A stretch of 64,000 bases of DNA from Candidatus Babeliales bacterium (GCA_050250855.1 JBFWNW010000002.1:69925-133924); one strand, 5' to 3'; positions 30,817-60,033 are shown, counted from the stretch's first letter. The notes: a model not told the origin generated them from the letters alone. Program-made: numbers and translations.

Positions 30817-32298
30817 ATGAATACAACATTTTCACATTTTAATCGTCCATATTCTTGGAAAAATTTAAGCTTTCTTTTTATTGCAGCATTCATACTACGA
30901 GCTCTTTTTTTCTTTTTTTATGTACAACATGAAGAGCGTTATCGTCAAGCAGATTCTATGGATTATCATGCATGCGCAGTAAGCCTTGGCGCTGGATTTG
31001 GCTTAGTACATCCACAACATAGAAAGCCTATTTTTTGGCGCGTTCCAGGTTATCCTTATTATCTATCAAAATTTTATACATCATATGGACTAAAGGATCC
31101 TCGCTTTGAAGGAAACCGTGAAGCACAAAAAGCATCAATTTGGTTTCAAATCTTTTTATGCTCCTTTACTCCTATTCTTACTTTTTTTCTTGCGCTCTTT
31201 TTAACAGGATCATTAGCTCTTGCATGGATTACCGGCTGGATTTTTGTATTTCATGTAGGATTCATTCTGGCAAGTACCTATCTGCTTACAGATGGCCTTG
31301 CTACACTATTTTTTTTAATGTTTTTAATACTTTTTTATCTTTGTTTTAATTTTATAGGAGAACAGCGACACTTATCTGCCAATAAATATCTTTATTGCAT
31401 TGGCGCTGCATTAACTCTTTCTGCTTATACGTGGATGAGACCAAATGGTGAATTTATTGCACTTCTTGCTCTTATAATTTTTGCCCTTGCTGCTGGCACA
31501 TGGAGAAAAAAAGTTGTTATGATGATACTCTTTTTTTCTGTATTTTTTTCAAGCATTAGCCCATGGTATTTTAGAAATTACCGCCTTACTGAAAAATGGT
31601 TTTTCTGTCCCATGTCTGGACCTTATCATTTAGCATTTACTGCCCCAAAAATATTACGCAGAGTAACAAAACAACCCCTTGATATCTGTTTGAAATACCT
31701 TTTTTATCAAACTAAACAGGAATTAGACCGCCAAGAAAAAGAATTAAAAATTACTTCGCCCCATCTTTATGTACCGCAAGAATTAGTATGCGGTTCCATT
31801 GCGCGCCAGTGGCTAACAAAATATCCTCATTATCTTGCTTGTGATTGGGCTCGAGAAGTTTCCAAGGCAACGTTTGATTTGTATTCAAGTCAACTTGTTG
31901 CCTTTGCAAATAATAGTTATACCTATGATCCCATTGAAGAATTTTTAACGGAAAAACTAAAAAATTGCATCTATAAACAAGCTATGCCTTGGTGGATGCG
32001 ACTAGTCTGCTGGCTTGAATTAATCTTTTCTCTTTGCGTCTGGTTTGGCTTATTTGGTGGCCTTATTTATTATGTTATTCTTCCTTTATTCTATCTTATA
32101 AGAAAAAAACAACCTCTTCATGCTGTATCTTTACTCTGGATTAAAACAGGACTCATGATAGGGGGATTATTGTTTATGACAGGAGGATTTGGTTATGCGC
32201 GCCTTCGTATGCCACCTGAAGCGCTCATGATCATTCTTTCGCTAACATTTTGGTATTGGTTTTTAGAAAAAAAACATCTTGAGGAGCTTACTCAATGA
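30817..32298 (+). CDS. GT-C fold membrane glycosyltransferase (PMT/ArnT-like), second copy
   Basis: 493 aa, polytopic. YRQADSMDYH acidic loop motif after TM1. Divergent from the wecB operon. Confidence 0.6.
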   Translation: MNTTFSHFNRPYSWKNLSFLFIAAFILRALFFFFYVQHEERYRQADSMDYHACAVSLGAGFGLVHPQHRKPIFWRVPGYPYYLSKFYTSYGLKDPRFEGNREAQKASIWFQIFLCSFTPILTFFLALFLTGSLALAWITGWIFVFHVGFILASTYLLTDGLATLFFLMFLILFYLCFNFIGEQRHLSANKYLYCIGAALTLSAYTWMRPNGEFIALLALIIFALAAGTWRKKVVMMILFFSVFFSSISPWYFRNYRLTEKWFFCPMSGPYHLAFTAPKILRRVTKQPLDICLKYLFYQTKQELDRQEKELKITSPHLYVPQELVCGSIARQWLTKYPHYLACDWAREVSKATFDLYSSQLVAFANNSYTYDPIEEFLTEKLKNCIYKQAMPWWMRLVCWLELIFSLCVWFGLFGGLIYYVILPLFYLIRKKQPLHAVSLLWIKTGLMIGGLLFMTGGFGYARLRMPPEALMIILSLTFWYWFLEKKHLEELTQ

Positions 32299-33680: not shown

Positions 33681-35117
33681 ATGAAGAATCATTTTAAAAA
33701 ATTACTATTGTTCGGATTACTCGGTGCAATGCCCACAATTTTTGCTGAGAAAATAAAGCTTGAATCAAGCAATGACAAAAAGTTCGAAATCGAAAAAAAA
33801 GCCGCAGAACAATCAATAACTATTAAAAACATGTTAGCAGATATAGGTGAAGCAACTGATCAACCAATTCCTTTGCCCAATATAGATGGAGCAACGTTGG
33901 GGCATATGGTAGAATTTCTTACAAACATAGATAAAAATCCGAAAAAATATAAAAATCCTCAAGAACTAATTACTTTGATTAAAAATAAAAATTTAGATCT
34001 TGAAAATCTTATAAAAATAGTTAATGCAACAAATTATCTTGATATACCTACGCTCCTTGATGCTGCAACTACAGTTTTAGCAGAATATATCAATACCAAT
34101 CCAAGCAATCTTGAAGAAAAAGTCAAAAAACTTCCTTTAGATATTCTAAAACTTGTTATGCAAAAATTAAATTTTAAAGAAACACCATTCAAAACACTTA
34201 TGGAAGATAGATCTGTCACTTCAGTAGCATGGTCACCAGATAGCAAAAAGCTTGCATCAGGCTCAGATGACGGTATCATAAAAACATGGGATACCAATAC
34301 CTGGCAAAAGACACCTCTTAAAGGGCATACATCCTATGTCCATTCAGTAGCATGGTCACCAGATGGCACCAAGCTTGCATCAGGCTCATATGATGATAAA
34401 ACCATAAAAATATGGGATGCCAATAACGGGAAAGAGCTCAAAATTCTTAAGGGGCATACAGGCGATATCATTTCAGTAGCATGGTCACCAGATGGCACTA
34501 AGCTTGCATCAGGCTCAAATGACGAGACCATAAAAATATGGGATGCAAAAAACTGGAAAAAGCTCCAAACTCTTACGGGGCATGAAGGCGCGATTAATTC
34601 AGTAGCATGGTCACCAGATGGCACTAAGCTTGCATCAGGCTCACATGACGAGACCATAAAAATATGGAATGCAAAAAATGGCACAGAGCTCCAAACCCTT
34701 ACAGGGCATACAGCTGAGGTCACTTCAGTAGCATGGTCACCAGATGGCACTAAGCTTGCATCAGGCTCACATGACAAAACCATAAAAATATGGGATGCCA
34801 ATAACGGGAAAGAGCTCCAAATTCTTAGGGGGCATAAAGATTCTGTCTATTCAGTAGCATGGTCACCAGATGGCAAAAATCTTGCATCAGGCTCAGATGA
34901 CAAAACCATAAAAATATGGAATACCAATACCTGGAAAGAGCTCCAAACTCTTACAGGGCATGAAGGCGCGATTAATTCAGTAGCATGGTCACCAGATGGC
35001 ACTAAGCTTGCATCAGGCTCACATGACAAAACTATAAAAATATGGGAACGAGAGTCTGAAATAGGAAAAAAATTACAAGAAGTTATAAAAGAAAAAGAAA
35101 AAACAACCAAAATCTAA
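33681..35117 (+). CDS. Secreted SKP1-like (BTB/POZ) / F-box-like / 7xWD40 fusion protein, copy 1
   Basis: AAGGAGA SD. Signal peptide MKNHFKKLLLFGLLGAMPTIFA. IKLESSNDKKFEIEKKAAEQSITIKNMLADIG...PIPLPNIDGATL aligns with SKP1. LPLDILKLVMQKL follows, then 7 repeats of GH..V.SVAWSPDG.KLASGS.D.TIKIW. Confidence 0.85.
   Translation: MKNHFKKLLLFGLLGAMPTIFAEKIKLESSNDKKFEIEKKAAEQSITIKNMLADIGEATDQPIPLPNIDGATLGHMVEFLTNIDKNPKKYKNPQELITLIKNKNLDLENLIKIVNATNYLDIPTLLDAATTVLAEYINTNPSNLEEKVKKLPLDILKLVMQKLNFKETPFKTLMEDRSVTSVAWSPDSKKLASGSDDGIIKTWDTNTWQKTPLKGHTSYVHSVAWSPDGTKLASGSYDDKTIKIWDANNGKELKILKGHTGDIISVAWSPDGTKLASGSNDETIKIWDAKNWKKLQTLTGHEGAINSVAWSPDGTKLASGSHDETIKIWNAKNGTELQTLTGHTAEVTSVAWSPDGTKLASGSHDKTIKIWDANNGKELQILRGHKDSVYSVAWSPDGKNLASGSDDKTIKIWNTNTWKELQTLTGHEGAINSVAWSPDGTKLASGSHDKTIKIWERESEIGKKLQEVIKEKEKTTKI
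34200..35045 (+). repeat. Seven tandem ~126-bp coding repeats (WD40 blades)
   Basis: tcagtagcatggtcaccaga recurs at 34221, 34344, 34473, 34599, 34725, 34851 and 34977. Confidence 0.95.
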
Positions 35118-35446: not shown

Positions 35447-36886
35447 ATGAAGAATCATTTTAAAAAATTACTATTGTTCGGATTACTCGGTGCAATGCCT
35501 ACAATTTTTGCTGAGAAAATAAAGCTTGAATCAAGCGATGACAAAAAGTTCGAAATCGAAAAAAAAGCCGCAGAACAATCAATAACTATTAAAAACATGT
35601 TAGCAGATATAGGTGAAGCAACTGATCAACCAATTCCTTTGCCCAATATAGATGGAGCAACGTTGGGGCATATGGTAGAATTTCTTATAAACATAGATAA
35701 AAATCCTCAAGAACTAATTACTTTGATTAAAAATAAAAATTTAGATCTTGAAAATCTTATAAAAATAGTTAATGCAACAAATTATCTTGATATACCTACG
35801 CTCCTTGATGCTGCAACTACAGTTTTAGCAGATCATATTAATGCTACGCAAACAGCTATTAATGATTTTAAAGACAAACTTCCTTTAGATATACTAAAGC
35901 TTCTTGTGCAAAAAATACCAGGAGGAACGTTTAAAGAAACGCCATTCAAAACACTTATGGGGAATACGAACACGGTCTATTCAGTTGCATGGTCACCAGA
36001 TGGCACTAAGCTTGCATCAGTCTCAGATCTCAAGACCATAAAAATATGGGATACCAATACCTGGAAAGAGCTCCAAACCCTTACAGGGCATACAGCCGCG
36101 GTCGATTCAGTAGCATGGTCACCAGATGGCAAAAATCTTGCATCAGGCTCAAGTGACACAACCATAAAAATATGGAATACCAATACCTGGAAAGAGCTCC
36201 AAACTCTTAAAGGGCATACAGCCGTGGTCACTTCAGTAGCATGGTCACCGGATGGCAAAAAGCTTGCATCAGGTTCACATGACAATACCATAAAAATATG
36301 GAATACCAATACCTGGAAAGAGCTCCGAACTCTTACAGGGCATACAGCCGTGGTCACTTCAGTAGCATGGTCACCGGATGGCACTAAGCTTGCATCAGGT
36401 TCACATTCACCTGACAATACCATAAAAATATGGGATGCGAATACCTGGAAAGAGCTCCAAACTCTTACAGGGCATACAGCCGCGCTCACTTCAGTAGCAT
36501 GGTCACCAGATGGCACTAAGCTTGCATCAGGTTCAAATGCATATAGCAACAATACCATAAAAATATGGGATACCAATACCTGGAAAAAGCTCCGAACTCT
36601 TAAGGGGGATACAGCCGCGATCACTTCAGTAGCATGGTCACCAGATGGCAAAAATCTTGCATCAGGCTCAAATGACAAAACCATAAAAATATGGAATGCA
36701 AAAAATGGCACAGAGCTCCAAACTCTTAAAGGGCATACAGCCGCGGTCGATTCAGTAGCATGGTCACCAGATGGCACTAAGCTTGCATCAGGTTCATGGG
36801 AGCTAAAAATATGGGAACGAGAGTCTGAAATAGGAAAAAAATTACAAGAAGTTATAAAAGAAAAAGAAAAAACAACCAGAACCTAA
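35447..36886 (+). CDS. Secreted SKP1-like (BTB/POZ) / F-box-like / 7xWD40 fusion protein, copy 2
   Basis: Same signal peptide and SKP1-like N-terminal domain as copy 1. [13 protein letters not shown], then 7 WD40 blades, some with 2-3 aa loop insertions (HSPDN, NAYSNN). Confidence 0.85.
   Translation: [479 protein letters not shown]
35965..36815 (+). repeat. Seven tandem ~126-bp coding repeats (WD40 blades), copy 2
   Basis: Recurring gcatggtcacc[ag]gatggca...cttgcatcagg...accataaaaatatgg units. Confidence 0.9.
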
Positions 36887-48750: not shown

Positions 48751-49521
48751 ATGCTTATTAGCAACACGGGAAGATTTTTTTTAAAAGCATGTAATGCTAC
48801 TGGTTCCTTTATTCTTTTTTTAGGACATGTGCTGCGTACTTTTTTTTCTGAAAAACCTCCTTATAAAAAGATACTGCACAATATTGAGTCTATAGGAATT
48901 CATTCGCTTCCTATTGTTTTATTAACCGGTACGTTTTCTGGCGCCGTACTCGCTTTGCAAAGTTATTTAGGATTCAAGCGCTTTGGCGGTCAAGATTTTA
49001 TAGGCCCTATTGTAGCATTAACCTTAACACGAGAGTTAGGCCCCGTTTTAACAGGACTTATGGTCACAGGAAGGGCCGGTTCTTCCATTGCAGCAGAAAT
49101 TGGCACCATGAAAATTACTGAACAAATTGATGCTCTGCGCACGATGAATATTAATATCTGGCACTATCTTATGGTTCCCCGTATTGTTGCTGCTACTTTT
49201 ATAGTACCTTTTCTTTCACTGATTGCTATGCTCATGGGAATCTTAGGCGGTTATTTTGTATGCACCTATATTTTACATATAAATAGTCACCTTTATATTC
49301 TTGGCATTCAAAAACATATTGACCTTTTTGACATTATAAGCGGCCTGATTAAATCTGCTTTTTTTGGCCTCATTTTTTCATGGGTTGGTTGTTATAAAGG
49401 ATATAAAACATATGGCGGCGCTCAAGGAGTTGGCAAAGCCACAACACAAACGGTTGTCCTTGCTTCTGTTATGATTTTAATAGCTAACTACTTTTTAACC
49501 GCACTTCTTTTTGGTCTCTAG
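48751..49521 (+). CDS. mlaE: MlaE-family ABC transporter permease
   Basis: Polytopic 256-aa protein. Motifs ..G..SLPIV.LTG.F.G.VLALQ.. and TRELGPVLT.L...GRAGS..AAEIG.MK..EQIDAL. Confidence 0.85.
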   Translation: MLISNTGRFFLKACNATGSFILFLGHVLRTFFSEKPPYKKILHNIESIGIHSLPIVLLTGTFSGAVLALQSYLGFKRFGGQDFIGPIVALTLTRELGPVLTGLMVTGRAGSSIAAEIGTMKITEQIDALRTMNINIWHYLMVPRIVAATFIVPFLSLIAMLMGILGGYFVCTYILHINSHLYILGIQKHIDLFDIISGLIKSAFFGLIFSWVGCYKGYKTYGGAQGVGKATTQTVVLASVMILIANYFLTALLFGL

Positions 49522-49524
49522 CAT

Positions 49525-50277
49525 ATGATTCAACTTATTAATGTTCATAAAAAAATTAAAAATTCATTTATCTCTAAGGGCATAGATCTGGTAATCCCTG
49601 CTCACAAGATGACCGTTATTATAGGAAGATCGGGTGAAGGTAAGTCACTTCTTTTAAAACAGATCATGGGACTTGTAAAACCAACATCAGGCTCAATTTT
49701 GATTGATAATAAGGATATAACTACATTATCAGAAAAAGAGTGCGCTCCTATTTTTAGCCAACTGGGCTATGTATTTCAATTTGCAGCTCTTCTTGATTCA
49801 CTCAATACATTTGAAAATATAGGAATAAAGTTGCTCCTTGATGGCATGCCCCGAGAAAAGGTTCTTGCTATTGTGCAAGAAAAATTAGCTCTTGTTCATT
49901 TACCACAAGAAGTATTATGGAAATATCCTTCTGAACTTTCTGGCGGCATGCGCAAGCGCGTTGGCTTGGCACGCACTTTAACCACAAACCCTAGCATTAT
50001 TTTGTATGATGAACCAACAACGGGCCTTGACCCTATTACAACACGAGTAATTCATGAACTTATGCATGACATGCAAGTAAAACTCAATGTAACGTCTGTT
50101 GTTATTTCACATGACGTTGAAATTTTTAAATATGCGGATCATGTAGCACTATTGCATGAAGGTAAAATTCAGTATTCAGGAACTGCCTGCGACATATGGC
50201 AAACGGATAATGCTCACGTTCATCAATTCATTCATGGCTTACAAAACGGCCCTATTCAAGCAGAATGGCAACTCTAA
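49525..50277 (+). CDS. mlaF: MlaF-family ABC transporter ATP-binding protein
   Basis: Walker A GRSGEGKS, signature LSGGMRKRV, Walker B ILYDEPTTGLD. Confidence 0.85.
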   Translation: MIQLINVHKKIKNSFISKGIDLVIPAHKMTVIIGRSGEGKSLLLKQIMGLVKPTSGSILIDNKDITTLSEKECAPIFSQLGYVFQFAALLDSLNTFENIGIKLLLDGMPREKVLAIVQEKLALVHLPQEVLWKYPSELSGGMRKRVGLARTLTTNPSIILYDEPTTGLDPITTRVIHELMHDMQVKLNVTSVVISHDVEIFKYADHVALLHEGKIQYSGTACDIWQTDNAHVHQFIHGLQNGPIQAEWQL

Positions 50278-50390: not shown

Positions 50391-51377
50391 ATGGTTCATG
50401 AATTAGATAATCAACTTATTGAAAAAATACAAGAACAAAGCGCTTTATTTAATCTTTTAAAAAATGAAGTCGGCAAACATATTGTTGGCAATGAAAAAGC
50501 TATAGATTTTATTATTATAGCCCTTCTTTGCAATGGACATATTCTTTTGGAAGGTGTTCCTGGTGTCGCTAAAACAAAAATGATTAAAACAATTTCTGAT
50601 GCGCTAGGTCTTTCGTTTAAGCGAATTCAATTTACGCCAGATTTATTACCAGCAGATTTGCTTGGCACCCTTATTTTTAACCCAAAAACTCATGAATTTG
50701 AAACAAAAAAGGGTCCTATTTTTGCCAATTTAATTTTAGCCGATGAAATTAACCGTACGCCTGCAAAAGTTCAAGCTGCTTTGCTTGAATGTATGCAAGA
50801 ACATCAAGTAACACTCGGTTCTACTACCTACAATCTCGAAAAACCTTTCTTGGTATTTGCTACACAAAATCCTATAGAACAAGAAGGAACCTATCGCCTT
50901 CCTGAAGCGCAAATAGATAGATTCATGTTTAAACTTCTTATTGAATATTTAAATCCTGAACAAGAAAAACAAATTATAGCAAAAACAGAAAATAGTAGTC
51001 CTATTGTTCGTATTCTTGACCAGGCAACTATTTCAGCCGCGCAAGCATTAGTCAAAAAAGTATATGTCGATCAAAAGATTGTTGATTATATTATTGACCT
51101 TATTTTTGCAACAAGAAGACCACAAGATTATGGCTTAAAAAATATTAAACCATATATTCATTATGGCGTTTCTCCTCGTGCTACGCTTGCACTCTATCAT
51201 GCTGCTCAAGCTCATGCATTTTTAAAGAAACGACATTTTGTAATACCTGATGATGTAAAAGCAGTTGCTCCTGCAGTGCTTCGTCACCGCATAACGTTAA
51301 GCTACGAGGCAGAAGCGGATGATATTACGCAAGATGCTATCATTCAAACAATTTTAAATACTATTCCATCTCCATAA
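50391..51377 (+). CDS. MoxR-family AAA+ ATPase
   Basis: ILLEGVPGVAKT, FKRIQFTPDLLPADLLG and LADEINRTPAKVQAALLE.MQE motifs. Confidence 0.9.
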   Translation: MVHELDNQLIEKIQEQSALFNLLKNEVGKHIVGNEKAIDFIIIALLCNGHILLEGVPGVAKTKMIKTISDALGLSFKRIQFTPDLLPADLLGTLIFNPKTHEFETKKGPIFANLILADEINRTPAKVQAALLECMQEHQVTLGSTTYNLEKPFLVFATQNPIEQEGTYRLPEAQIDRFMFKLLIEYLNPEQEKQIIAKTENSSPIVRILDQATISAAQALVKKVYVDQKIVDYIIDLIFATRRPQDYGLKNIKPYIHYGVSPRATLALYHAAQAHAFLKKRHFVIPDDVKAVAPAVLRHRITLSYEAEADDITQDAIIQTILNTIPSP

Positions 51378-51486
51378 TAATAAGTAGGACAAATCAAGGG
51401 TCTATTCTTGCAATCAAAAATAGCCCTTGACAAAAAATTAATATGAAGGGTATTGTGTGAAAGTAATGTCAAAAAAAGGAATATTA

Positions 51487-52638
51487 ATGAAACATCCTTT
51501 TTGGCTTCTTAATAGTACTCTATTATTAACCTTTATTGGGTCAATACTTTTTGTAATTTTTTCATGGCAAAAAATGCCTTTAAAGGTATCCTTTGAGCCT
51601 GGTCCTGAAATAAAACCTATTAAAAAAGAACTTACAAAAATTGATCTGAGTAAAATTTATACTAACGATCTTTTTGATACGTATGTTCAACCATTGCCAA
51701 GTATCAAGCAGCCAACATTTACAGCACCTATTCCTGCACCCCCAATACCAAAACCACCAGCAATTCCTTCTACACCGCCTATAAAATTTTTAGAACCACT
51801 TAAAATTAATTTGCGTGGCATTATTATAGCAAGCGATGAACGCATGAATATTGCTATTATTCAAGATGCAAAAACAGGAAAATCTGAAAACTACAAAATT
51901 GGTGACATGCTTGAAGATGCTCAACTTATTAGAATATTAAAAAACAAAATTATTCTTATTCGCTCAAATGGGCAACAAGAAACTCTTTATGTAAGTCAGC
52001 ATGATGCAGAGCTTGAACAACTTATGAAACCTCAGCAAAACTGGACTTCTGTTATCAAGAAAACATCAGAAAATGTTTATAGCATAGATACCGATCTTTT
52101 TGCTGAAAAAATAAAAAATCTTTCACAATTTATTGACGCACTGAACTTAACAACAGTATATAAACAGGGTGAAAGCATTGGATGCCGCCTTGGTAAACAA
52201 AGTAATGATTCATTAGGCTTAGCGCTTGGTTTAATGCAAGGTGATATTATTGAATCAATACAAGGTATTCCGGTAACAACCACTGAAAATCGCTTTACTA
52301 TTTACCAAAATCTTCTTTCTTTAGAAAAAGGTCAGGAGATTTCCGTTATTGTGATACGACGAGGTCAACCAATGCGTTTTAGTTACCTATTGGAAAAATA
52401 TACGGGAATAAGTGCTGCTGCGCAGCTAGAAGGAATCTCAGTAAAATATGATGAAAAAACAGAAGAGCAAGTTAAAGCAGAAAAAAGAAAGCTTCTAGAA
52501 GAAAAATATCGTTTTGCTCCAACTGCTGAAGAACTACAAAAAAAAGAAAAACAGGATATGCTCAAATTAAGTAGACGAAATAGCCAGTTATCTAATAGGC
52601 AAAATCGTAGTACACTATTAAATACTATGAAACTTTAA
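51487..52638 (+). CDS. GspC/PilP-like inner-membrane secretion-system component with a PDZ-like domain
   Basis: N-terminal TM helix, Pro-rich linker (PIPAPPIPKPPAIPSTPP), HR-like beta domain (LRGIII...IILIRSNGQQETLYV), PDZ-like segment (GLMQGDIIESIQGIPV), Lys/Glu-rich tail. Alternative starts at 51457 (GTG) and 51466. Confidence 0.6.
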   Translation: MKHPFWLLNSTLLLTFIGSILFVIFSWQKMPLKVSFEPGPEIKPIKKELTKIDLSKIYTNDLFDTYVQPLPSIKQPTFTAPIPAPPIPKPPAIPSTPPIKFLEPLKINLRGIIIASDERMNIAIIQDAKTGKSENYKIGDMLEDAQLIRILKNKIILIRSNGQQETLYVSQHDAELEQLMKPQQNWTSVIKKTSENVYSIDTDLFAEKIKNLSQFIDALNLTTVYKQGESIGCRLGKQSNDSLGLALGLMQGDIIESIQGIPVTTTENRFTIYQNLLSLEKGQEISVIVIRRGQPMRFSYLLEKYTGISAAAQLEGISVKYDEKTEEQVKAEKRKLLEEKYRFAPTAEELQKKEKQDMLKLSRRNSQLSNRQNRSTLLNTMKL

Positions 52639-52650
52639 ATGTAGAAAAAA

Positions 52651-55296
52651 ATGAATTATAAAAAAATTATATCAATGCTTTTTATATTCTTTTTTTGTCA
52701 GCATCTAGAGGGATACACGAGAAAAACAAAAACTTCTTGTGCTAGTCCTGTTGCTGCAGAAAAACAACAGAGCTCTTATGGCAAAAGAGCATCACGAAAT
52801 AAACCTAAAGCGGTTATTTCTGGTTCTACCCAAGAATGTCAACCTGAAGCTTTAGATACCTGTGCTCCTGCAGTTTTTAATCCTGCGCAAAAGGTACAAA
52901 GCCGACAACCCTTTGCCGCAAAAAAAGATCCTAAACAGACTAAAACAAAACCACTATCACAAGTAGAGCAAAAACAAGTTGATGAGCCTTTAGATGGTCA
53001 CGATTTTTCTGAAGCTAAAAAGCATATTCCCACGCGCCCAAAAACAGCAACTGATGATAAAGAAGATTTAATAGAAGTAAATCTTGAAAAAACAGATCTT
53101 CCTAATTTGTTGCGTTGGATTTCTGATGTATTTAACGTTAAATTTTTAAGTGAAGATGCTCTTCAACCGTCGCCGAGTGGCAGAAATTTATCTGGTAATG
53201 CTATTACTTTTAAAACCCATACGCCACTTACCAAGCGTGAAGTGTGGGATCTCTTTATTACGTTTCTTGATCTTTTTGGTTTTGGCCTTTCTGAAGGCAC
53301 TATTCCAGATTTATATAAAGTTTTACCAACAGGGCCACAGGGGTCTCCTAATTTACTTTCAAAAGCACCGCTCCCTTCTTACATTAATATACCTTGGCAA
53401 GATTTACCTGATAATGATAGCACCGTGCGCTATGTATATTTGGTAAAAAATAGTAACTTAGCAACCATTCAAGGTATTGTTGATGCCTTTAGAAGTAACA
53501 CCTCAATATTACGAAAATTAGAAGATCTAAATGGTCTTTTTATGATTGATAAATCATCCAATATTCGTTCTATTATGCAAGTTGTTGATGAGCTTGATAA
53601 AGCAACACAACCGGAAGCACTTTCTGTTCTTAAGTTAAAAAATGCTGACGCTAATGATGTTGTTAATCTTTATAACCAATTAGTAAAAACAGAAGATCCT
53701 CGCGGCATTGCTCGCTTTTTGGGAGGCAAAAAACCTACTACTATTTACTTTCCCGAAGGCCTTCGCATGATTCCTGAACCGCGAACCAATACGCTGATTA
53801 TTTTGGGAGATAAAGAAGGTATCAAAAAAGCAGAAGATTTCATTATTAACCATGTTGATACTGAATTAAAAATTCCTTATTCACCTTTGTATGTTTATGA
53901 ATTACAGTACACCAGCGCCAAAGATATGGCAGAAATTTTAACGAATGTAACACAATTTACCGGAGGCTCTGCAGCCGCAGCAACAAGCGGCGGTGTTCGT
54001 GAAGGTGATAAATATTTACGTCCTATGGTGTTCAAGGCAGAAGATCAAGGAAATCGTTTACTTATTAAAGCAGAAAAAGAAGATTATTTAAAAGTGCGTG
54101 ATATTATTAGAAAACTTGATGTAAAACAACCACAGATTGCTATGGAAGTTTTAATCGTCAATGTTATTCAGACCAATGATCGCCAACTTGGCGTTCAGAT
54201 TCGTAACAAGTCAACAAATACCGTTAGTAAAAATCTTGATTTCCAAACTTCCGGGTTCCCTCTTGCGAATAATACTCGCTCAGCTCCCGTCATTGATCAA
54301 AATACTGGCTCAATCATGGCAAACCTTATTAGCCTTGCGCAAGGACAATCTGTTGGCTCAACCTTGTTGACCATTTCTAATGCAGCATCGGGCGTATGGG
54401 GAATTTTTAAAATTTTACAAAACTATGCACAAACAAATATTGTTTCTAATCCGTTCTTAATTACGACTAATAAATATACGGCTCAAGTTTCTATTGGTGA
54501 AACACGCCGTATTCAGACAAGTACAACCTCTGGTGTACAAAACGTTGCAGCATTTGGCGACGTTGAAGCGAATTTGACAGTAAAAATAACACCACAAATA
54601 AATAGTATAGGTATTATTAACTTAGTTGTTGATATTAGCATTCAAAACTTTACGCAAGCTGACCCTAACAGTGCTACTAAAGATACAAAAACAGTAAAAA
54701 CAAACGCTAACGTTGCTAATGGCGAAGTTCTTGCTATTGGTGGCCTCTTGCAATCAAGAGAAGATGATGCCACCAGCAAAGTACCTATTCTTGGTGATTT
54801 TCCTGTGCTTGGTTGGTTCTTTAAAAGTAAGGCAAAAACGAAAACAAAAGATAATTTACTTATTTTTATTTCTCCTCGCATTATCGAACCTATGCTTGCA
54901 GGTGGCATTGGTGAATACACACAAGAAAAAGCATGTAAATCAAAAAATATTATGGGCGAAGCTCGTCATCCTGCAGAAAAACGCGATCCTATTCATCGTT
55001 GGTTCTTCCATGACTATCCATGCGAAGGTACTGAGTATATTGACGATTTCCTTGCAAGTCGCAACAATGAACCAGTATGCCGCGTAGAATGTGAAGAATG
55101 TCCAGATCAAATAGATCCAGATTATACCTGTTGCGGAGAGCCAGCCACACGCTTTATAACAACAGATGCTGCAGTTGGCACTGATGCAAAGAAAAATAGT
55201 CCCGCACCTAAAGAAAAAGTTATTCTTGCTGATAACAAGGCAGAAAATAAAAAATCAAAAAAATCTCTTATTAACTTCTTGCCAGGTGAAGCATGA
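52651..55296 (+). CDS. Secretin (GspD/PilQ family), copy 1
   Basis: Signal peptide. N-domain repeats. C-terminal secretin domain NANVANGEVLAIGGLLQSREDDATSKVPILGDFPVLGWFFKSKAKTKTKDNLLIFISPRII. Cys-rich C-terminal tail. Confidence 0.9.
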   Translation: MNYKKIISMLFIFFFCQHLEGYTRKTKTSCASPVAAEKQQSSYGKRASRNKPKAVISGSTQECQPEALDTCAPAVFNPAQKVQSRQPFAAKKDPKQTKTKPLSQVEQKQVDEPLDGHDFSEAKKHIPTRPKTATDDKEDLIEVNLEKTDLPNLLRWISDVFNVKFLSEDALQPSPSGRNLSGNAITFKTHTPLTKREVWDLFITFLDLFGFGLSEGTIPDLYKVLPTGPQGSPNLLSKAPLPSYINIPWQDLPDNDSTVRYVYLVKNSNLATIQGIVDAFRSNTSILRKLEDLNGLFMIDKSSNIRSIMQVVDELDKATQPEALSVLKLKNADANDVVNLYNQLVKTEDPRGIARFLGGKKPTTIYFPEGLRMIPEPRTNTLIILGDKEGIKKAEDFIINHVDTELKIPYSPLYVYELQYTSAKDMAEILTNVTQFTGGSAAAATSGGVREGDKYLRPMVFKAEDQGNRLLIKAEKEDYLKVRDIIRKLDVKQPQIAMEVLIVNVIQTNDRQLGVQIRNKSTNTVSKNLDFQTSGFPLANNTRSAPVIDQNTGSIMANLISLAQGQSVGSTLLTISNAASGVWGIFKILQNYAQTNIVSNPFLITTNKYTAQVSIGETRRIQTSTTSGVQNVAAFGDVEANLTVKITPQINSIGIINLVVDISIQNFTQADPNSATKDTKTVKTNANVANGEVLAIGGLLQSREDDATSKVPILGDFPVLGWFFKSKAKTKTKDNLLIFISPRIIEPMLAGGIGEYTQEKACKSKNIMGEARHPAEKRDPIHRWFFHDYPCEGTEYIDDFLASRNNEPVCRVECEECPDQIDPDYTCCGEPATRFITTDAAVGTDAKKNSPAPKEKVILADNKAENKKSKKSLINFLPGEA

Positions 55297-56912
55297 TACG
55301 TGATATTTTTATTCCAGAAAAAGTTGGTACGTATTATCTATCACCAAAACGCATTATAGGATTTGATATAACCAAAACATACGTATACGCTTCACAAGTT
55401 TATTGCGCTGGCTCTTCTATTACGTTGGAAAAATTTTATCAAGAACAGATTGACCCTGATGTTACAAGATCTTATGTAGAACGAGTGAGCCAAGCAATTA
55501 GAGCAATTATGAGCCAAGCTCCTTATTGCGATGAAATGAGATCTTCTCTTTCAAGTACCTTAATTGTTTTTAAAGAATTAACATTACCGTTCTTGAATGC
55601 AGAAAAAATTTCCTTACTCTTGCCGTATGAAATTGAACAATCATTACCATTTTCATTACACGATGCAGTTGTTGATTTTATTACTACAAAGCAAACAGTT
55701 CAACAAGGAACATCAGACGTTATTGCTGCTGCTACCCAGAAAGAATATATTGCAGAGCAAATAGTTTATTTTGAACAAGCTGGCTACAACCCTACAACTC
55801 TCACTGTTGATCTTTTTGATCTTTATGGCCTTTATCGCCAAATTCCTTCTTATGCAACATCGGAGGAAACGGTGGCCCTTATTGATATAGAATTTAATAT
55901 AACCAGAATTTGTTTTATTATTGATGGTCAATTAAAACTTGTGCGCACATTACAGCGCGGCATTGCAAATATTGCAAAAACAATGGCTCAAGAACTTTCT
56001 GCTGCTAATGGAAAAGCACTAGAAGATCTTGTCAGATTTGGTCTAGAAAAACATGACGATGCATCCTATACGACTGCTGCACAAAAAGCAATGCAGATGT
56101 TCTTAAAAGATATTCAGTTCACCTTGCAATCATTTATAACGCAAACAGGCTATCAAGAAAAAATTAATAAAATTTTATTACTGGGCCGAGGCTCTGAAAT
56201 TAATAATCTTGAGCAGTTCTTTACTAAAAATTTGAGTATTGAAACCGTGCTTTTTGATACGAATGCTTTATTAAAACTACCAAATGTTTCAATAAAAACA
56301 GGCGTGCGTATTCCGCGTGCAAATAGCATAAGTTTATCTACAGCTTTCCCTACTACTATTACTGAAAGATTCAATTTACGCCAACAAGAGTTTGCTATTC
56401 CCTCAACCGTTACGTTTTACAAACAGTTTTTTGTAGCAGTTACTCTTTTTCTGTCAACATTCTTAATGCTCTTTATGCACAGCTATTGGCAAAAAAGAAC
56501 GCTAGCTCATACGGCAACAGCAATGGAAAAAGCGGTAGTAAATAAACTTAATGAGCTTGATCTAACGGATAAAAAACAGTTTGCTACTGCTCTTGAAGAT
56601 GCAGAGGAAAAAGTTGCACGAGAAGAAGAATTATGGTTTGGTTTTTCTCGTCAAACACGTTTTTCTTTCCTTAAAGCATTGCAAGATTTAAGCATTCTTA
56701 TAGATAGAAAAGGCCTTGGACTTCAGCTTAAAAAAATGATCATTACCACCAATGAAATTACCCTAGAGGGTGAGGTCAGAGGATTTGAAGAACTAAAAAC
56801 GCTTGAACGCGAATTGCGAGAATCAAAACTATTTGCCTATGTTCCTACACTGCAAGAGCTTAAATTTAATGAAAAGTTACCATTACGTAAAAATAATGAG
56901 GGACCTCAATGA
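55293..56912 (+). CDS. PilM-PilN fusion / GspL-like actin-fold assembly protein
   Basis: The N-terminal ~350 aa follows the PilM pattern (IIGFDITKT..., LIDIEFNITRICFIIDG, KILLLGRGSEINNL). One TM helix (FFVAVTLFLSTFLMLF), then a ~140-aa periplasmic domain. ATGA overlap upstream. Confidence 0.7.
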   Translation: MIRDIFIPEKVGTYYLSPKRIIGFDITKTYVYASQVYCAGSSITLEKFYQEQIDPDVTRSYVERVSQAIRAIMSQAPYCDEMRSSLSSTLIVFKELTLPFLNAEKISLLLPYEIEQSLPFSLHDAVVDFITTKQTVQQGTSDVIAAATQKEYIAEQIVYFEQAGYNPTTLTVDLFDLYGLYRQIPSYATSEETVALIDIEFNITRICFIIDGQLKLVRTLQRGIANIAKTMAQELSAANGKALEDLVRFGLEKHDDASYTTAAQKAMQMFLKDIQFTLQSFITQTGYQEKINKILLLGRGSEINNLEQFFTKNLSIETVLFDTNALLKLPNVSIKTGVRIPRANSISLSTAFPTTITERFNLRQQEFAIPSTVTFYKQFFVAVTLFLSTFLMLFMHSYWQKRTLAHTATAMEKAVVNKLNELDLTDKKQFATALEDAEEKVAREEELWFGFSRQTRFSFLKALQDLSILIDRKGLGLQLKKMIITTNEITLEGEVRGFEELKTLERELRESKLFAYVPTLQELKFNEKLPLRKNNEGPQ

Positions 56913-57478
56913 CGATAGTTAACCATATTAAAGAATTCATTGAGCAACTTGATGAAGCAGCTTTTAAGCGTTACATAGTTACCTTTTTTGCTCTTTTTTT
57001 CCTCTGCATAGGTTTTATTATATATCGCTACTATAGTGGCGTTTCAGTTATAAAAAATCGCATTGATACTATTAATAAAAAAAGAAAAGAGGTTAAAAAT
57101 CTCTTAGAACGTTTTGAAGTTGTTAAAGTACAAAAAACGGAAGTAGATACACTTCTTGAAAAAGATGCAGCATTTAAAATTGGTGGTTATTTTGATACTA
57201 TTATTAATCAACTAGGCATAGCCGGTAATCAAACTCGTGCTCCTGAAACTTCATCTGAAGAGCTAGATAATGGCTACACTGAAGTTAAGTTGTATGCAAG
57301 CTTTACCAACATGAATACACAAAAGCTTGTAGCATTACTTGACACACTTGAGCAAAATGAACGAATCTATACAAAAGAAGTTGAAATTTATAAACCAGAT
57401 GTTGGCAAAACAATCAACATAAATATTTTAATTGCAACGCTTGAACCAAAAATTGAAACAACTGAAATAACGGAGTGA
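56909..57478 (+). CDS. PilO/GspM-like bitopic membrane protein
   Basis: 189 aa with a single TM helix (IVTFFALFFLCIGFIIY), a coiled coil and a C-terminal alpha/beta domain. ATGA overlap upstream. Confidence 0.55.
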   Translation: MTIVNHIKEFIEQLDEAAFKRYIVTFFALFFLCIGFIIYRYYSGVSVIKNRIDTINKKRKEVKNLLERFEVVKVQKTEVDTLLEKDAAFKIGGYFDTIINQLGIAGNQTRAPETSSEELDNGYTEVKLYASFTNMNTQKLVALLDTLEQNERIYTKEVEIYKPDVGKTININILIATLEPKIETTEITE

Positions 57479-57480
57479 TT

Positions 57481-60033
57481 ATGCTAAACAAGCGTTTTAT
57501 ATTTCTTGTAAGCATAGTACTATTTACTACGCATGCATTAATGAGTACTGAAGAAATTTCTTTAAAAAAAGATGATTCAGTAAAAAAAACTCATACAAGA
57601 ACTGGCAAAAAAAAAATTAAATTCGAGTTTACGGATAAACCTCTTGTAGATATTATCAATGAACTCGCACAAGAAAAAAAACTAAATATTATTCTTCCGC
57701 AAGGTGATCCTGTTGAAATAAAAACAAAGGTAACCTATCATCTTAAAAAACCTTTAACCCTTGCACAAGCATGGAAAGAAGTTATTTCACTACTTGACCT
57801 TGCTGGCTATACTATGCAGCCGCAGGGCACTGATATGCTTCTTATTAGAAAAGTTGATGATAATATAAAAAAACAAATTACTTCAATCTTTATTGATCAA
57901 CCTCTCGATAAATTACCTGATAATGAAAACTTTATTCGTGCTGTTTTTTATTTGGCCAATATAAATCTTAAAAATGAGTCTAGCTGGGGGGATTTAAATC
58001 CCATATTAACCGATATGCTTTCAGCTAAAGCAAATATCCAGGTTGATAAAAAAACTAACGCTTTAATTTTAACTGACAAAGCAACCAATATAAAATCGGT
58101 TATGAAAATAGTTTTGGAGCTTGATAAAGGTGGCCCTAAAGATAGCATTGAAGTTATTCCTCTTTACTATACCTCAGCAGATGATATTCAAAAACTTTTT
58201 GATCAACTGCTTGCACCACGTCAACAACCAGTACCTGGTGCTCCTCCTGTGCAAGAGCAAGCTTCTTATTTTCCTAAAAATACAAGAATTATTGCATTGC
58301 CGCGTAATAATAATTTAGTAATTATGGGTACGCCGTATACTATAGATCTAGTGCGTGATTTTATTATTAAATATATTGACCGTCCTTTAGAATCTGGTGA
58401 ATCAATTCTTCATATTTATGATTTACAATATCTTGATGCACAGCAATTTCAGCCCGTTTTACAACAAATTGTAAGTCCTGGGCAAACAGGACAAAGTACT
58501 GGACAGGCTGTAGCTCAAGGGCCTAAGCAATATTTCCAGGGCGTTATTATTGCTGCCGAAAAAACAAGCGAAACGGAACAGCTTGCACCGTCAACCGTAG
58601 GCACCAATGGTTCAACGGCTGGCGCACAGCCACAAGCAGAAACCGCAAAAGTAGGTGGTAATCGTTTACTTATTGCAGCACGTAAAAAAGATTGGATTCG
58701 CATTAAGCAACTTATTGAGGATCTTGATAAACCCCAACCACAAATTTCTTTAGAAGTACTTGTTGCTGATATAACTCTCAATAGCGATAAATTATTAGGC
58801 AGCCAAATGCGCAACAAACAAGGCTGGAATGATGCCATTTCACAAGGTGTTGATTGGCAAAGTGCACAACTTAACCAGCCTGTATTAAAAGCTGCACCTA
58901 TAAATCCCGATGGTACCGGCGCTAGTGATATCTTCACTCAATTACCTGCAGATGCCCTTATGTCAAACTTATTGCAATTGAATGATCCTTTTGGCAATGG
59001 CCAAAACCTTGCATCAGTTATGACACCTGGATCTTTAGTATTTTCTTTAAAAGATTCTGCCAATAATGGCATTTGGAGTGTTTGGCAATTTATTAATAAC
59101 TACACCACAGCAACGCTTATCGCTCAACCCTTTGTGGTTACCAAAAATCACCAACAAGCAAGTGTAACTATTGCACAGCAACGATTCGTTGCTGGTAAAG
59201 CAGATACCAGTAATACTGCCGTTAACGTTGCTAATGAATGGATTACCGCTGCATTTACTATTGATATTCTTCCTCATATAAGTAGCTCTGGTAATGTCAA
59301 TTTACAAGTAGTGGTAAAAATAAACCAGTTTGCATCCTCTGATGTTACTAACAACACGCGCTTGACGCGCTTAGTACAAACCAATGCAAACGTTGGCGAT
59401 GGTCAAATTTTAGCTCTTGGTGGCCTAACGCGTGAATCAACGGATGATGCTATGCGAGAAACTCCGGTTTTAGGAAATTTCCCCATCTTAGGATGGTTCT
59501 TTAAAGCGAAGCAAAAAATTAAGGAACGTAATAACCTTATCATTTTTATTAGACCAGTAATTGATAAAGAGATTGTCGGTGGTACAAGCAAATTTACTCA
59601 ACGCAAACTTGCTTATGCTAAAGATAGTATTGATGAAAGTCTTTGCTTTGAAAATCTTAATGACCCTATTACGCGTTGGTTCTTTAAGCCTGATCCGTTC
59701 TATGCAAAAAATACTATTGATGAGTACAAACATATAACGCAAAAACATCGTGAGCCATCTGGAAAAGCTGAAGACGTGAAAGTTTTAGCTGAGCAATCTG
59801 TAGATAAAAAAACTATACGAGAGCTTGTTAAAAATGAAACAAATCCTTTATTAAATACGCAAGAAGAAAAATCTGTGCATATTGCCACCACAAAATCTTC
59901 TCCTGCACGCAAAGAACGTTCTGTGCAAGAGAAAAGAATGCATGATATTATTGCAAAAGAAGCTTCATGCCAAGACTTAAAACTATTACTTGAAGACGCA
60001 GAAAATCCTTTACTTGCTAATTCTCAAGCATAG
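57481..60033 (+). CDS. Secretin (GspD/PilQ family), copy 2
   Basis: ATG at 57481 follows GGAG. Signal peptide. Secretin domain NANVGDGQILALGGLTRESTDDAMRETPVLGNFPILGWFFKAKQKIKERNNLIIFIRPVI. Roughly 160-aa C-terminal extension. Confidence 0.9.
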   Translation: MLNKRFIFLVSIVLFTTHALMSTEEISLKKDDSVKKTHTRTGKKKIKFEFTDKPLVDIINELAQEKKLNIILPQGDPVEIKTKVTYHLKKPLTLAQAWKEVISLLDLAGYTMQPQGTDMLLIRKVDDNIKKQITSIFIDQPLDKLPDNENFIRAVFYLANINLKNESSWGDLNPILTDMLSAKANIQVDKKTNALILTDKATNIKSVMKIVLELDKGGPKDSIEVIPLYYTSADDIQKLFDQLLAPRQQPVPGAPPVQEQASYFPKNTRIIALPRNNNLVIMGTPYTIDLVRDFIIKYIDRPLESGESILHIYDLQYLDAQQFQPVLQQIVSPGQTGQSTGQAVAQGPKQYFQGVIIAAEKTSETEQLAPSTVGTNGSTAGAQPQAETAKVGGNRLLIAARKKDWIRIKQLIEDLDKPQPQISLEVLVADITLNSDKLLGSQMRNKQGWNDAISQGVDWQSAQLNQPVLKAAPINPDGTGASDIFTQLPADALMSNLLQLNDPFGNGQNLASVMTPGSLVFSLKDSANNGIWSVWQFINNYTTATLIAQPFVVTKNHQQASVTIAQQRFVAGKADTSNTAVNVANEWITAAFTIDILPHISSSGNVNLQVVVKINQFASSDVTNNTRLTRLVQTNANVGDGQILALGGLTRESTDDAMRETPVLGNFPILGWFFKAKQKIKERNNLIIFIRPVIDKEIVGGTSKFTQRKLAYAKDSIDESLCFENLNDPITRWFFKPDPFYAKNTIDEYKHITQKHREPSGKAEDVKVLAEQSVDKKTIRELVKNETNPLLNTQEEKSVHIATTKSSPARKERSVQEKRMHDIIAKEASCQDLKLLLEDAENPLLANSQA

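Follow-up and report, generated by a model that had tools for sequence, protein, structure and literature searches.

A conserved type II secretion operon of Dependentiae with two paralogous secretins and one set of scaffold genes

Why would a bacterium keep two different secretins in one operon, beside a single set of scaffold genes? The question is raised by a five-gene operon in a metagenome-assembled genome (MAG) of Candidatus Babeliales (Dependentiae/TM6), which we analyzed in a window of 64,000 nucleotides (nt), GCA_050250855.1 JBFWNW010000002.1:69925-133924; the window means this whole stretch, and positions are counted from its first nucleotide. Dependentiae are widespread obligate parasites of protists. 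We regard it as securely established that this conserved operon encodes the scaffold and pore of the Dependentiae type II secretion system (T2SS), and we ask how its two secretins might be used. The listing of open reading frames (ORFs) gives five on the same strand at 51.4-60.0 kb, in the order gspC, secretin 1, pilM::pilN, pilO-like and secretin 2:

51487..52638, plus strand: GspC-like protein of 383 amino acids (aa) (Pfam T2SSC, PDZ profile match, conserved N-terminus)
52651..55296, plus strand: secretin 1, GspD-type, 881 aa (Pfam Secretin and Secretin_N, TIGR02517, PDB)
55293..56912, plus strand: PilM::PilN fusion, 539 aa (gene 3; Pfam PilM_2, PDB profile, AlphaFold/Foldseek)
56909..57478, plus strand: bitopic protein of PilO/GspM fold, 189 aa (gene 4; AlphaFold/Foldseek)
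57481..60033, plus strand: secretin 2, GspD-type, the more divergent paralog, 850 aa (Pfam Secretin and Secretin_N, TIGR02517, PDB)

An earlier, sequence-only reading of this DNA had described five translationally coupled genes, and all five ORFs are indeed present. A spacing of 12 nt separates gspC from secretin 1, and ATGA overlaps join secretin 1 to pilM::pilN (55293-55296, within GCATGATAC) and pilM::pilN to the pilO-like gene (56909-56912, within CAATGACG). At the junction with secretin 2, GGAGTGATTATG at 57472-57483, the start may be a GTGA overlap (57475) or the ATG at 57481, which lies 2 nt past the TGA stop of the pilO-like gene, gives the 850-aa protein and is also used by an independent gene call on identical DNA from GCA_050181685.1. 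The two overlaps and this pair of alternatives are as that reading had them. Its start for gspC, GTG 51457 (393 aa), is replaced: because the N-terminus MKHPFWLLNS is common to 8 gspC orthologs, the start is most likely ATG 51487 (383 aa), which is preceded by AAAGGA.

That these bacteria have two secretin genes is already on record. In the text available to us, Yeoh et al. (2016, PMC4776705) report that each of the seven TM6 genomes has two gspD copies and no pilQ, and term it 'an open question' whether one copy may substitute for PilQ. The literature searched, parts of which were accessible only as excerpts, did not yield any account of a coupled operon shared by the two copies, of the PilM::PilN fusion, of the PilO-fold protein or of N0 domains specific to each paralog. 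The same search brought up no bacterial case of two secretins encoded in a single T2SS operon or of a hetero-oligomeric secretin, and no inventory of Dependentiae pilus or T2SS genes other than in three genome papers.

Are both proteins secretins of the GspD type, and are they true paralogs? Both have the N0-N1-N2-N3-secretin arrangement of GspD. Secretin 1 consists of a signal peptide, a leader (residues 22-140), an N0 domain with a clade-specific loop, domains N1-N3, the secretin domain (589-746), a post-secretin extension containing RDPIHRWFF and a Cys-rich variable tail. Secretin 2 has a signal peptide, a short leader, an N0 domain without the secretin 1 loop, N1-N3 with an insertion, the secretin domain, the same extension (here NDPITRWFF) and a variable tail. 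The leader of secretin 1 contains 14% Lys, 9% Pro and 9% Gln, about twice the proportion in the rest of the protein, just as the sequence-only reading had it when it called this region low-complexity and rich in these residues. Against Pfam, secretin 1 and secretin 2 score 123.9 and 109.8 bits for Secretin and 78.9 and 94.3 bits for Secretin_N, all exceeding the cut-offs, with a weak N0 match in both. The best NCBIfam model for each is TIGR02517, GspD (261 and 250 bits; PilQ 160 and 139), and the top PDB matches of both are all T2SS GspD proteins (139 bits for secretin 1, 97 for secretin 2). Lipoprotein ('self-piloting') secretins were considered and rejected, no consistent lipobox being found at the N-termini.

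The two secretins are 31% identical over ~700 aa (E 1e-103) and score 329 bits to each other versus 139 and 97 bits to proteobacterial GspD. The motif (R/N)DPI.RWFF in the extension is common to both and therefore points to common descent. In a neighbor-joining tree of 10 secretin-1 and 11 secretin-2 orthologs, midpoint-rooted and built with no outgroup, the sequences fall into two reciprocally monophyletic clades whose internal branching largely matches; identity averages 45% and 44% inside the two clades and 30% from one clade to the other. Because the paralogs are far closer to each other than to proteobacterial GspD, share the C-terminal motif and form two clades in this tree, we place the duplication within the lineage. 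Outgroups for rooting it were sought in a search of 1.8 billion representative proteins and none was found among the best 150 matches listed, all of which are secretin-2-type. The earlier suggestion of two paralogous secretins in one coupled operon is thus borne out by the identity, the shared extension and the tree.

Could one of the two simply be redundant or in decay, with no role of its own? A point in favor of this explanation is that secretin 2 lies further from characterized GspD (97 versus 139 bits). Against it, full-length ORFs for both are present in every genome retrieved, within-clade identity is the same for both, and a per-domain analysis finds the N0 domain, N1-N3, the secretin domain and the ~50-aa post-secretin extension equally conserved in the two clades. 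Additionally, the secretin-2 family comprises at least 150 distinct representatives of 50%-identity clusters with full-length matches above 340 bits. Decay of one copy in relatives, which the sequence-only reading had named as grounds for giving up a shared or dual channel, is seen in none of the retrieved genomes, both copies being intact and equally conserved; pseudogene and chance-ORF explanations were rejected. We consider redundancy very improbable. Because there are two monophyletic clades with equal conservation in both, the sequence comparison indicates that the duplication is ancient, that purifying selection acts similarly on the two copies and that neither is decaying. What does differ between the paralogs is above all N0, their most diverged domain (18% identity), in which the secretin 1 clade has a conserved loop, DAL.P.P.GGK..GN, that secretin 2 does not have.

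How widely is this gene arrangement kept? Loci were collected by scanning a single genome for each GTDB species, which gave nine, and by context look-ups for the most divergent matches, which gave more; gene order was read by tblastn and ORF extraction. The gene 3 protein has an identical counterpart in a 'Candidatus Babeliales' MAG and 127 detectable relatives, and those with a source name are all from Dependentiae, Babeliales or TM6. The order gspC-secretin 1-pilMN-pilO-secretin 2 is intact in 10 complete loci, partial loci and contigs agree, and the order is kept down to 31-35% PilMN identity. Throughout the retrieved loci the genes of the operon overlap or abut at their start and stop codons, and a convergent eno usually lies 3' of secretin 2. 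Between genomes the surroundings of the operon change and its own gene order is kept, and one set each of GspC, PilMN and PilO accompanies the two secretins (four secretin modules in one locus, L019, described below).

Two observations concern individual sequences in this collection. Secretin 1, PilM::PilN, the PilO-like protein and enolase are identical between the window and an NCBI contig of GCA_050181685.1, and secretin 2 (window 57475-60033 versus L001:4609-7164 on that contig) differs in one amino acid (99.88% identity). Additionally, several loci and proteins that are clearly from Dependentiae are labeled 'uncultured Pseudomonadota' or 'Alteromonas naphthalenivorans' in public records (L005 and L010 in their titles, P0198 in its source), probably because MAG contigs were given the wrong taxonomic label.

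The scaffold genes are of mixed kinship. GspC has an N-terminal transmembrane (TM) segment (residues 5-26), a Pro-rich linker, an HR domain, a PDZ domain and a basic C-terminal tail. It scores 36.3 bits against Pfam T2SSC (cut-off 27) and 98.6 bits against NCBIfam GspC_delta, under the cut-off of 150; its profile matches DegQ/DegP PDZ domains in the PDB (3e-11) and, weakly, the HR domain of GspC/OutC/PulC. The TM, HR and PDZ parts of a GspC are present by sequence, and its contact with N0 is predicted.

Gene 3 begins with an actin-like domain (~1-350), followed by the motif FNLR (360-363), a TM helix (~378-397), a coiled coil and an alpha/beta domain (478-531). Pfam PilM_2 matches at 80.8 bits (cut-off 27), and PilN matches with E=0.012; T2SSL (E=0.048) matches under its cut-off, as does TIGR01175 (96 bits, cut-off 133). 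A 60-sequence profile of gene 3 finds the PilM proteins of Myxococcus (M. xanthus 8e-28), Pseudomonas and Thermus in the PDB, with E-values up to 2e-17. The AlphaFold model (pLDDT 88.7) has an actin-like domain, a linker, a TM helix running into a long coiled coil and a small alpha/beta domain; Foldseek places PilM at the top (1e-25, TM-score on the target 0.78-0.81), EpsL/GspL following at 1e-9, and also matches the fold to the PilM:PilN(1-12) complex, so that the PilM of a type IVa pilus (T4aP) machine is present. The FNLR motif, near-invariant in the linker that joins the PilM domain to the TM helix (nt 56370-56381), is one that we take to resemble the INLLP motif by which PilN binds PilM, and it suggests that the fused PilN segment may still dock into its own PilM domain. 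Because a PilM-type domain is followed by the PilN-like FNLR motif, TM helix, coiled coil and alpha/beta domain, we identify gene 3 as a fusion of PilM with a full-length PilN that reproduces the architecture of GspL.

Gene 4 encodes a TM segment (~19-41), a long helix and a ferredoxin-like domain. Pfam, NCBIfam and a profile search against the PDB assigned it to no family by sequence, and matches to tubulin and PNPase (E ~0.1) were discarded as noise. Its relatives are annotated as 'hypothetical', and their source names are all Dependentiae or Babeliales. The AlphaFold model (pLDDT 88.7) finds PilO first in Foldseek (2rjz, 3jc8_O and 5uvr, from P. aeruginosa and M. xanthus; E ~1e-3, probability 1.0), the next matches being V. 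cholerae EpsM (1uv7) and Akkermansia Amuc_1100. In other words, GspL and GspM are not found as sequence families, and architectural equivalents of both are present. The sequence-only reading had called these genes PilM-N/GspL-like and PilO/GspM-like; their position between the secretins and their general type stand, and the actin-fold domain proves to be of the PilM type rather than the GspL type.

Where is the rest of the machine? In the window, tblastn finds no GspF homolog and motif scans find no GspE-type Walker A motif, no prepilin motif and no PilA, PilB or PilT, in agreement with the earlier statement that ATPase, platform and pilin genes are missing from this stretch. In one relative, gspF and gspG lie ~4 kb from the secretin operon, and its GspF was used as a query for the others. 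Four Dependentiae genomes have a second operon, consisting of gspF, gspG and then three or four prepilin-type genes with weak matches to GspH, I, J and K:

L015:10001-16431: gspF-G-H-I-J-K-like operon
L016:10001-16496: gspF-G-H-I-J-K-like operon
L017:10001-14656: gspF-G-H-I-J-K-like operon
L018:10001-16418: gspF-G-H-I-J-K-like operon

The L016 GspG scores 97.7 bits against TIGR01710, above the equivalog cut-off of 88.85, and the relatives' GspF scores 359 bits against TIGR02120, under the cut-off of 424. GspG and the GspH-K set are thus found in these relatives, outside the window. Of the genes that the sequence-only reading proposed to locate elsewhere, gspF and the pseudopilin genes have been found in relatives and gspE has not, there being no gspE beside gspF in the four genomes. 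By its pseudopilins, its GspC and the type of its secretins, the system is a T2SS with scaffold proteins of the T4aP type, and its operon looks as if a gspC-gspD module had been combined with a pilM-N-O-'Q' module. Lipid-transport genes of the Mla type are neighbors of T2SS genes at both loci: an MlaD-like gene (527-550 aa) follows the pseudopilin genes in three of the four genomes, and in the window the genes immediately upstream of moxR are mlaE and mlaF (48751-50277).

The T4aP likeness of the scaffold brings up an explanation considered by Yeoh et al. (2016), in which secretin 1 alone secretes and secretin 2 is a substitute for PilQ in a separate type IV pilus or DNA uptake machine. The established order of the T4aP operon is pilMNOPQ. 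Secretin 2 stands after pilM::pilN and pilO, the position of pilQ, and the scaffold proteins beside it are of the PilM and PilO types rather than the GspL and GspM types. Published annotations lean the same way as far as the accessible portions of these sources go: pilQ is missing from TM6 genomes, for which 'possibly a type IV pilus' is reported (PMC4776705), and 'Tfp pilus system assembly' genes are noted in Babela. Chromulinavorax is described as having type IV pilus assembly proteins that possibly act via 'a derived pulD channel' (Deeg et al. 2019). However, secretin 2 scores 250 bits for GspD versus 139 for PilQ, no AMIN domain is reported for it and no PilP-type lipoprotein is present; electron microscopy of Babela showed no pili, as cited in the available text of PMC4776705; and the sole pilin operon found is the T2SS-type gspG-K set. 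The published 'pilus' annotations may themselves reflect the PilM label on the fusion gene. On balance we find a separate pilus role for secretin 2 rather improbable.

We favor, tentatively, two separate homo-oligomeric pores served by one shared platform; the sharing, the homo-oligomers and their different cargo are what we infer from three observations, namely that solved secretins are homo-oligomeric, that N0 is the most diverged domain and that two to four secretin modules go with a single scaffold set. All solved secretins in our PDB match lists are homo-oligomers of 12-15 identical chains, and the diverged N0 sequences point rather to different docking. In such a machine the operon would encode the envelope-spanning scaffold and the outer-membrane part of a T2SS, which is a type IV filament machine, and the platform and pseudopilin genes (gspF-G-H-I-J-K) and the ATPase would be encoded elsewhere in the genome. 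GspC, PilM::PilN (in place of GspL) and the PilO-fold protein (in place of GspM) would form a single inner-membrane assembly platform. Both secretins would be functional and co-expressed, with their work divided after the ancient duplication: secretin 1 would act as the canonical T2SS pore docked to GspC, and secretin 2, at the pilQ position and with another N0 docking surface, would be a second outlet for another class of cargo or for a fiber. Sec-exported proteins, eukaryote-like effectors among them, would leave the periplasm through the secretin pores.

Might the two secretins instead co-assemble in one conduit, as a mixed ring or as stacked or concentric rings, so that the channel is obligately hetero-oligomeric? 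Both genes are coupled in one operon with a single platform set, the pair is kept across the sampled phylum, and purifying constraint is equal on the two copies, all of which such a channel would account for. There is also a proposed parallel in the mitochondrial T2SS, in which GspD and GspDL are thought to make a multi-protein pore, contrasted there with the single-polypeptide bacterial pore (PMC10128026). On the other hand, every structurally solved bacterial secretin is homo-oligomeric, and ~30% identity between the paralogs, with N0 the most diverged domain, suits different partners better than one symmetric ring. We judge co-assembly unlikely, albeit a contender that deserves to be taken seriously.

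One contig departs from the common layout. On L019 (JGI 2140918012 contig00016; operon L019:2167-14476) the order is gspC, secretin 1, pilM::N, pilO-like, secretin 2 and a double secretin, which makes four secretin modules with one scaffold set. The double secretin, P0299 (ORF at L019:10001-14476), is a protein of 1491 aa with two complete secretin-2-type modules, the second lacking a signal peptide. The resident secretin 2 and the two extra modules, three in all, belong to the secretin-2 clade and are 40-47% identical to one another; the arrangement is seen on this single contig. As far as one contig's sequence can speak, duplication of secretin 2 is a recurring event, and a single chain can hold two modules. 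Such a chain adds to the case for co-assembly, with the reservation that it pairs two secretin-2-type modules rather than secretin 1 with secretin 2.

Several points weigh against separate pores on a shared platform. The L019 double secretin, with two modules in one polypeptide, favors co-assembly, and one mixed complex would account just as well for the translational coupling and the fixed co-occurrence. Both secretins are under the GspD equivalog cut-off (261 and 250 versus 351 bits); gspE, the prepilin peptidase (GspO) and pilB/pilT/pilA were not located in any retrieved locus; and the oligomeric state and the cargo are both deduced from sequence. A bolder version of co-assembly is an obligately composite channel of two (in some lineages three or four) secretin modules, in a mixed or stacked ring or with one paralog extending the conduit into a host-derived membrane. 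We hold this to be quite unlikely. If true, it would explain how eukaryote-like effectors that bear signal peptides (Skp1-like/WD40, ankyrin) exit towards the host without a type III, type IV or type VI secretion system.

Upstream of the operon, two further features deserve mention:

50391..51377, plus strand: MoxR-type AAA+ ATPase (Pfam bpMoxR/AAA_3 matches recorded for orthologs)
51427..51456, plus strand: sigma-70-like promoter candidate in the moxR-gspC gap (TTGACA-18-TATTGT, 10/12 matches)

Of the 11 full-length loci that extend far enough in this direction, 10 have moxR directly upstream of gspC in the same orientation (orthologs at gspC in L002-L004, L006, L008-L011, L013 and L018; absent in L019), and the genes beyond it vary between genomes while the adjacency to gspC stays. 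It is a conserved upstream neighbor that may or may not belong to the system; it may help to assemble the secretion complex, or the conservation may be mere synteny. The promoter candidate is the joint best site of the region, and the total of promoter-like sites is no greater than in shuffled sequence; the promoter and terminator scan as a whole did not rise above the shuffled background and does not settle the transcription units.

What might pass through these pores? In the accessible part of the Babela massiliensis report, a T2SS is given as the sole secretion system of that organism (Pagnier et al. 2015, PMC4378268), and the available text on Chromulinavorax gives signal peptides on 44% of its coding sequences (Deeg et al. 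2019). In the window, two near-identical paralogs of 478 and 479 aa (33681-35117 and 35447-36886) combine a seven-bladed WD40 propeller with an N-terminal region resembling Skp1 on visual inspection, and each carries a Sec signal peptide (MKNHFKKLLLFGLLGAMPTIFA). Both are candidates for effectors of a eukaryote-like kind, and their signal peptide makes them possible T2SS cargo. The proposal in the sequence-only reading that the channel is an exit for secreted proteins encoded nearby is plausible in general, and this pair fits it; the link to neighbors is not specific, given that the genes around the operon change between genomes. A T2SS would carry its cargo only across the bacterial outer membrane. 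Elsewhere in the window, ~20 co-directional genes occupy the minus strand at 9674-30685, two of which were scanned and resemble glycosyltransferases (STELLO-like and GT10 fucosyltransferase-like), and a PMT-like mannosyltransferase lies at 30817-32298; the 9674-30685 run may represent a gene cluster for surface glycans, in a lineage from which lipopolysaccharide genes are reported to be missing.

With a very large share of the proteome bearing signal peptides and no other secretion system, this machine is presumably central to parasitism. An equally constrained pair of secretins sharing one scaffold is a test case for several ideas: hetero-oligomeric secretins, one inner-membrane platform serving two pores, and the merging of T2SS and pilus-like functions during genome reduction. 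Interest in the pair would rise sharply if a composite channel, or the extension of the conduit towards the host, proved true. Additionally, the mix of GspC/GspD with PilM::PilN/PilO bears on the divergence of T2SS and T4aP machines.

How, then, does the Dependentiae operon compare with known systems? With the canonical T2SS of Proteobacteria (Gsp/Pul/Eps) it shares a GspC with HR and PDZ domains adjoining a GspD-type secretin; relatives have GspF, the major pseudopilin GspG and a minor set like H-I-J-K; and the predicted function, export of Sec-translocated folded proteins, is the same. Unlike the canonical system, it has two secretins rather than one, a PilM-type domain fused to a full PilN replaces GspL, and a PilO-fold protein replaces GspM. 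Its genes are spread over at least three loci, its secretins carry the lineage-specific RDPI.RWFF extension, secretin 1 has a disordered leader rich in Lys, Pro and Gln, and no pilotin, GspN or GspAB was seen.

The T4aP machine PilM-PilN-PilO-PilP-PilQ is similar in the order pilM, pilN, pilO, secretin, in the PilM-type cytoplasmic domain (the closest Foldseek match of gene 3) followed by a PilN-like FNLR, and in the PilO fold. It differs in that PilM and PilN are one chain in Dependentiae and that a GspC-type PDZ protein stands upstream instead of PilP. The PilQ with AMIN domain and the PilP lipoprotein of a T4aP are not found, Pfam and NCBIfam giving no AMIN and the HR protein being GspC-type; the secretin that takes the place of pilQ resembles GspD, and the pilins of relatives are T2SS pseudopilins. 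The Akkermansia cluster Amuc_1098-1102 offers a more distant likeness, with the PilM-like Amuc_1101 family (E 4.6e-16 to gene 3), the PilO-like Amuc_1100 (Foldseek, gene 4) and the secretin Amuc_1098 family (a C-terminal match only), all matches being far under the family cut-offs; it differs in having one secretin and no GspC.

The mitochondrial T2SS of jakobids, heteroloboseans and others is eukaryotic, has split or truncated proteins (GspD, GspDL, GspDN1-3) and no operon, and is of unrelated origin (PMC10128026). Like the Dependentiae system, it nevertheless has more than one secretin-family protein, which in that case are proposed to make a single pore.

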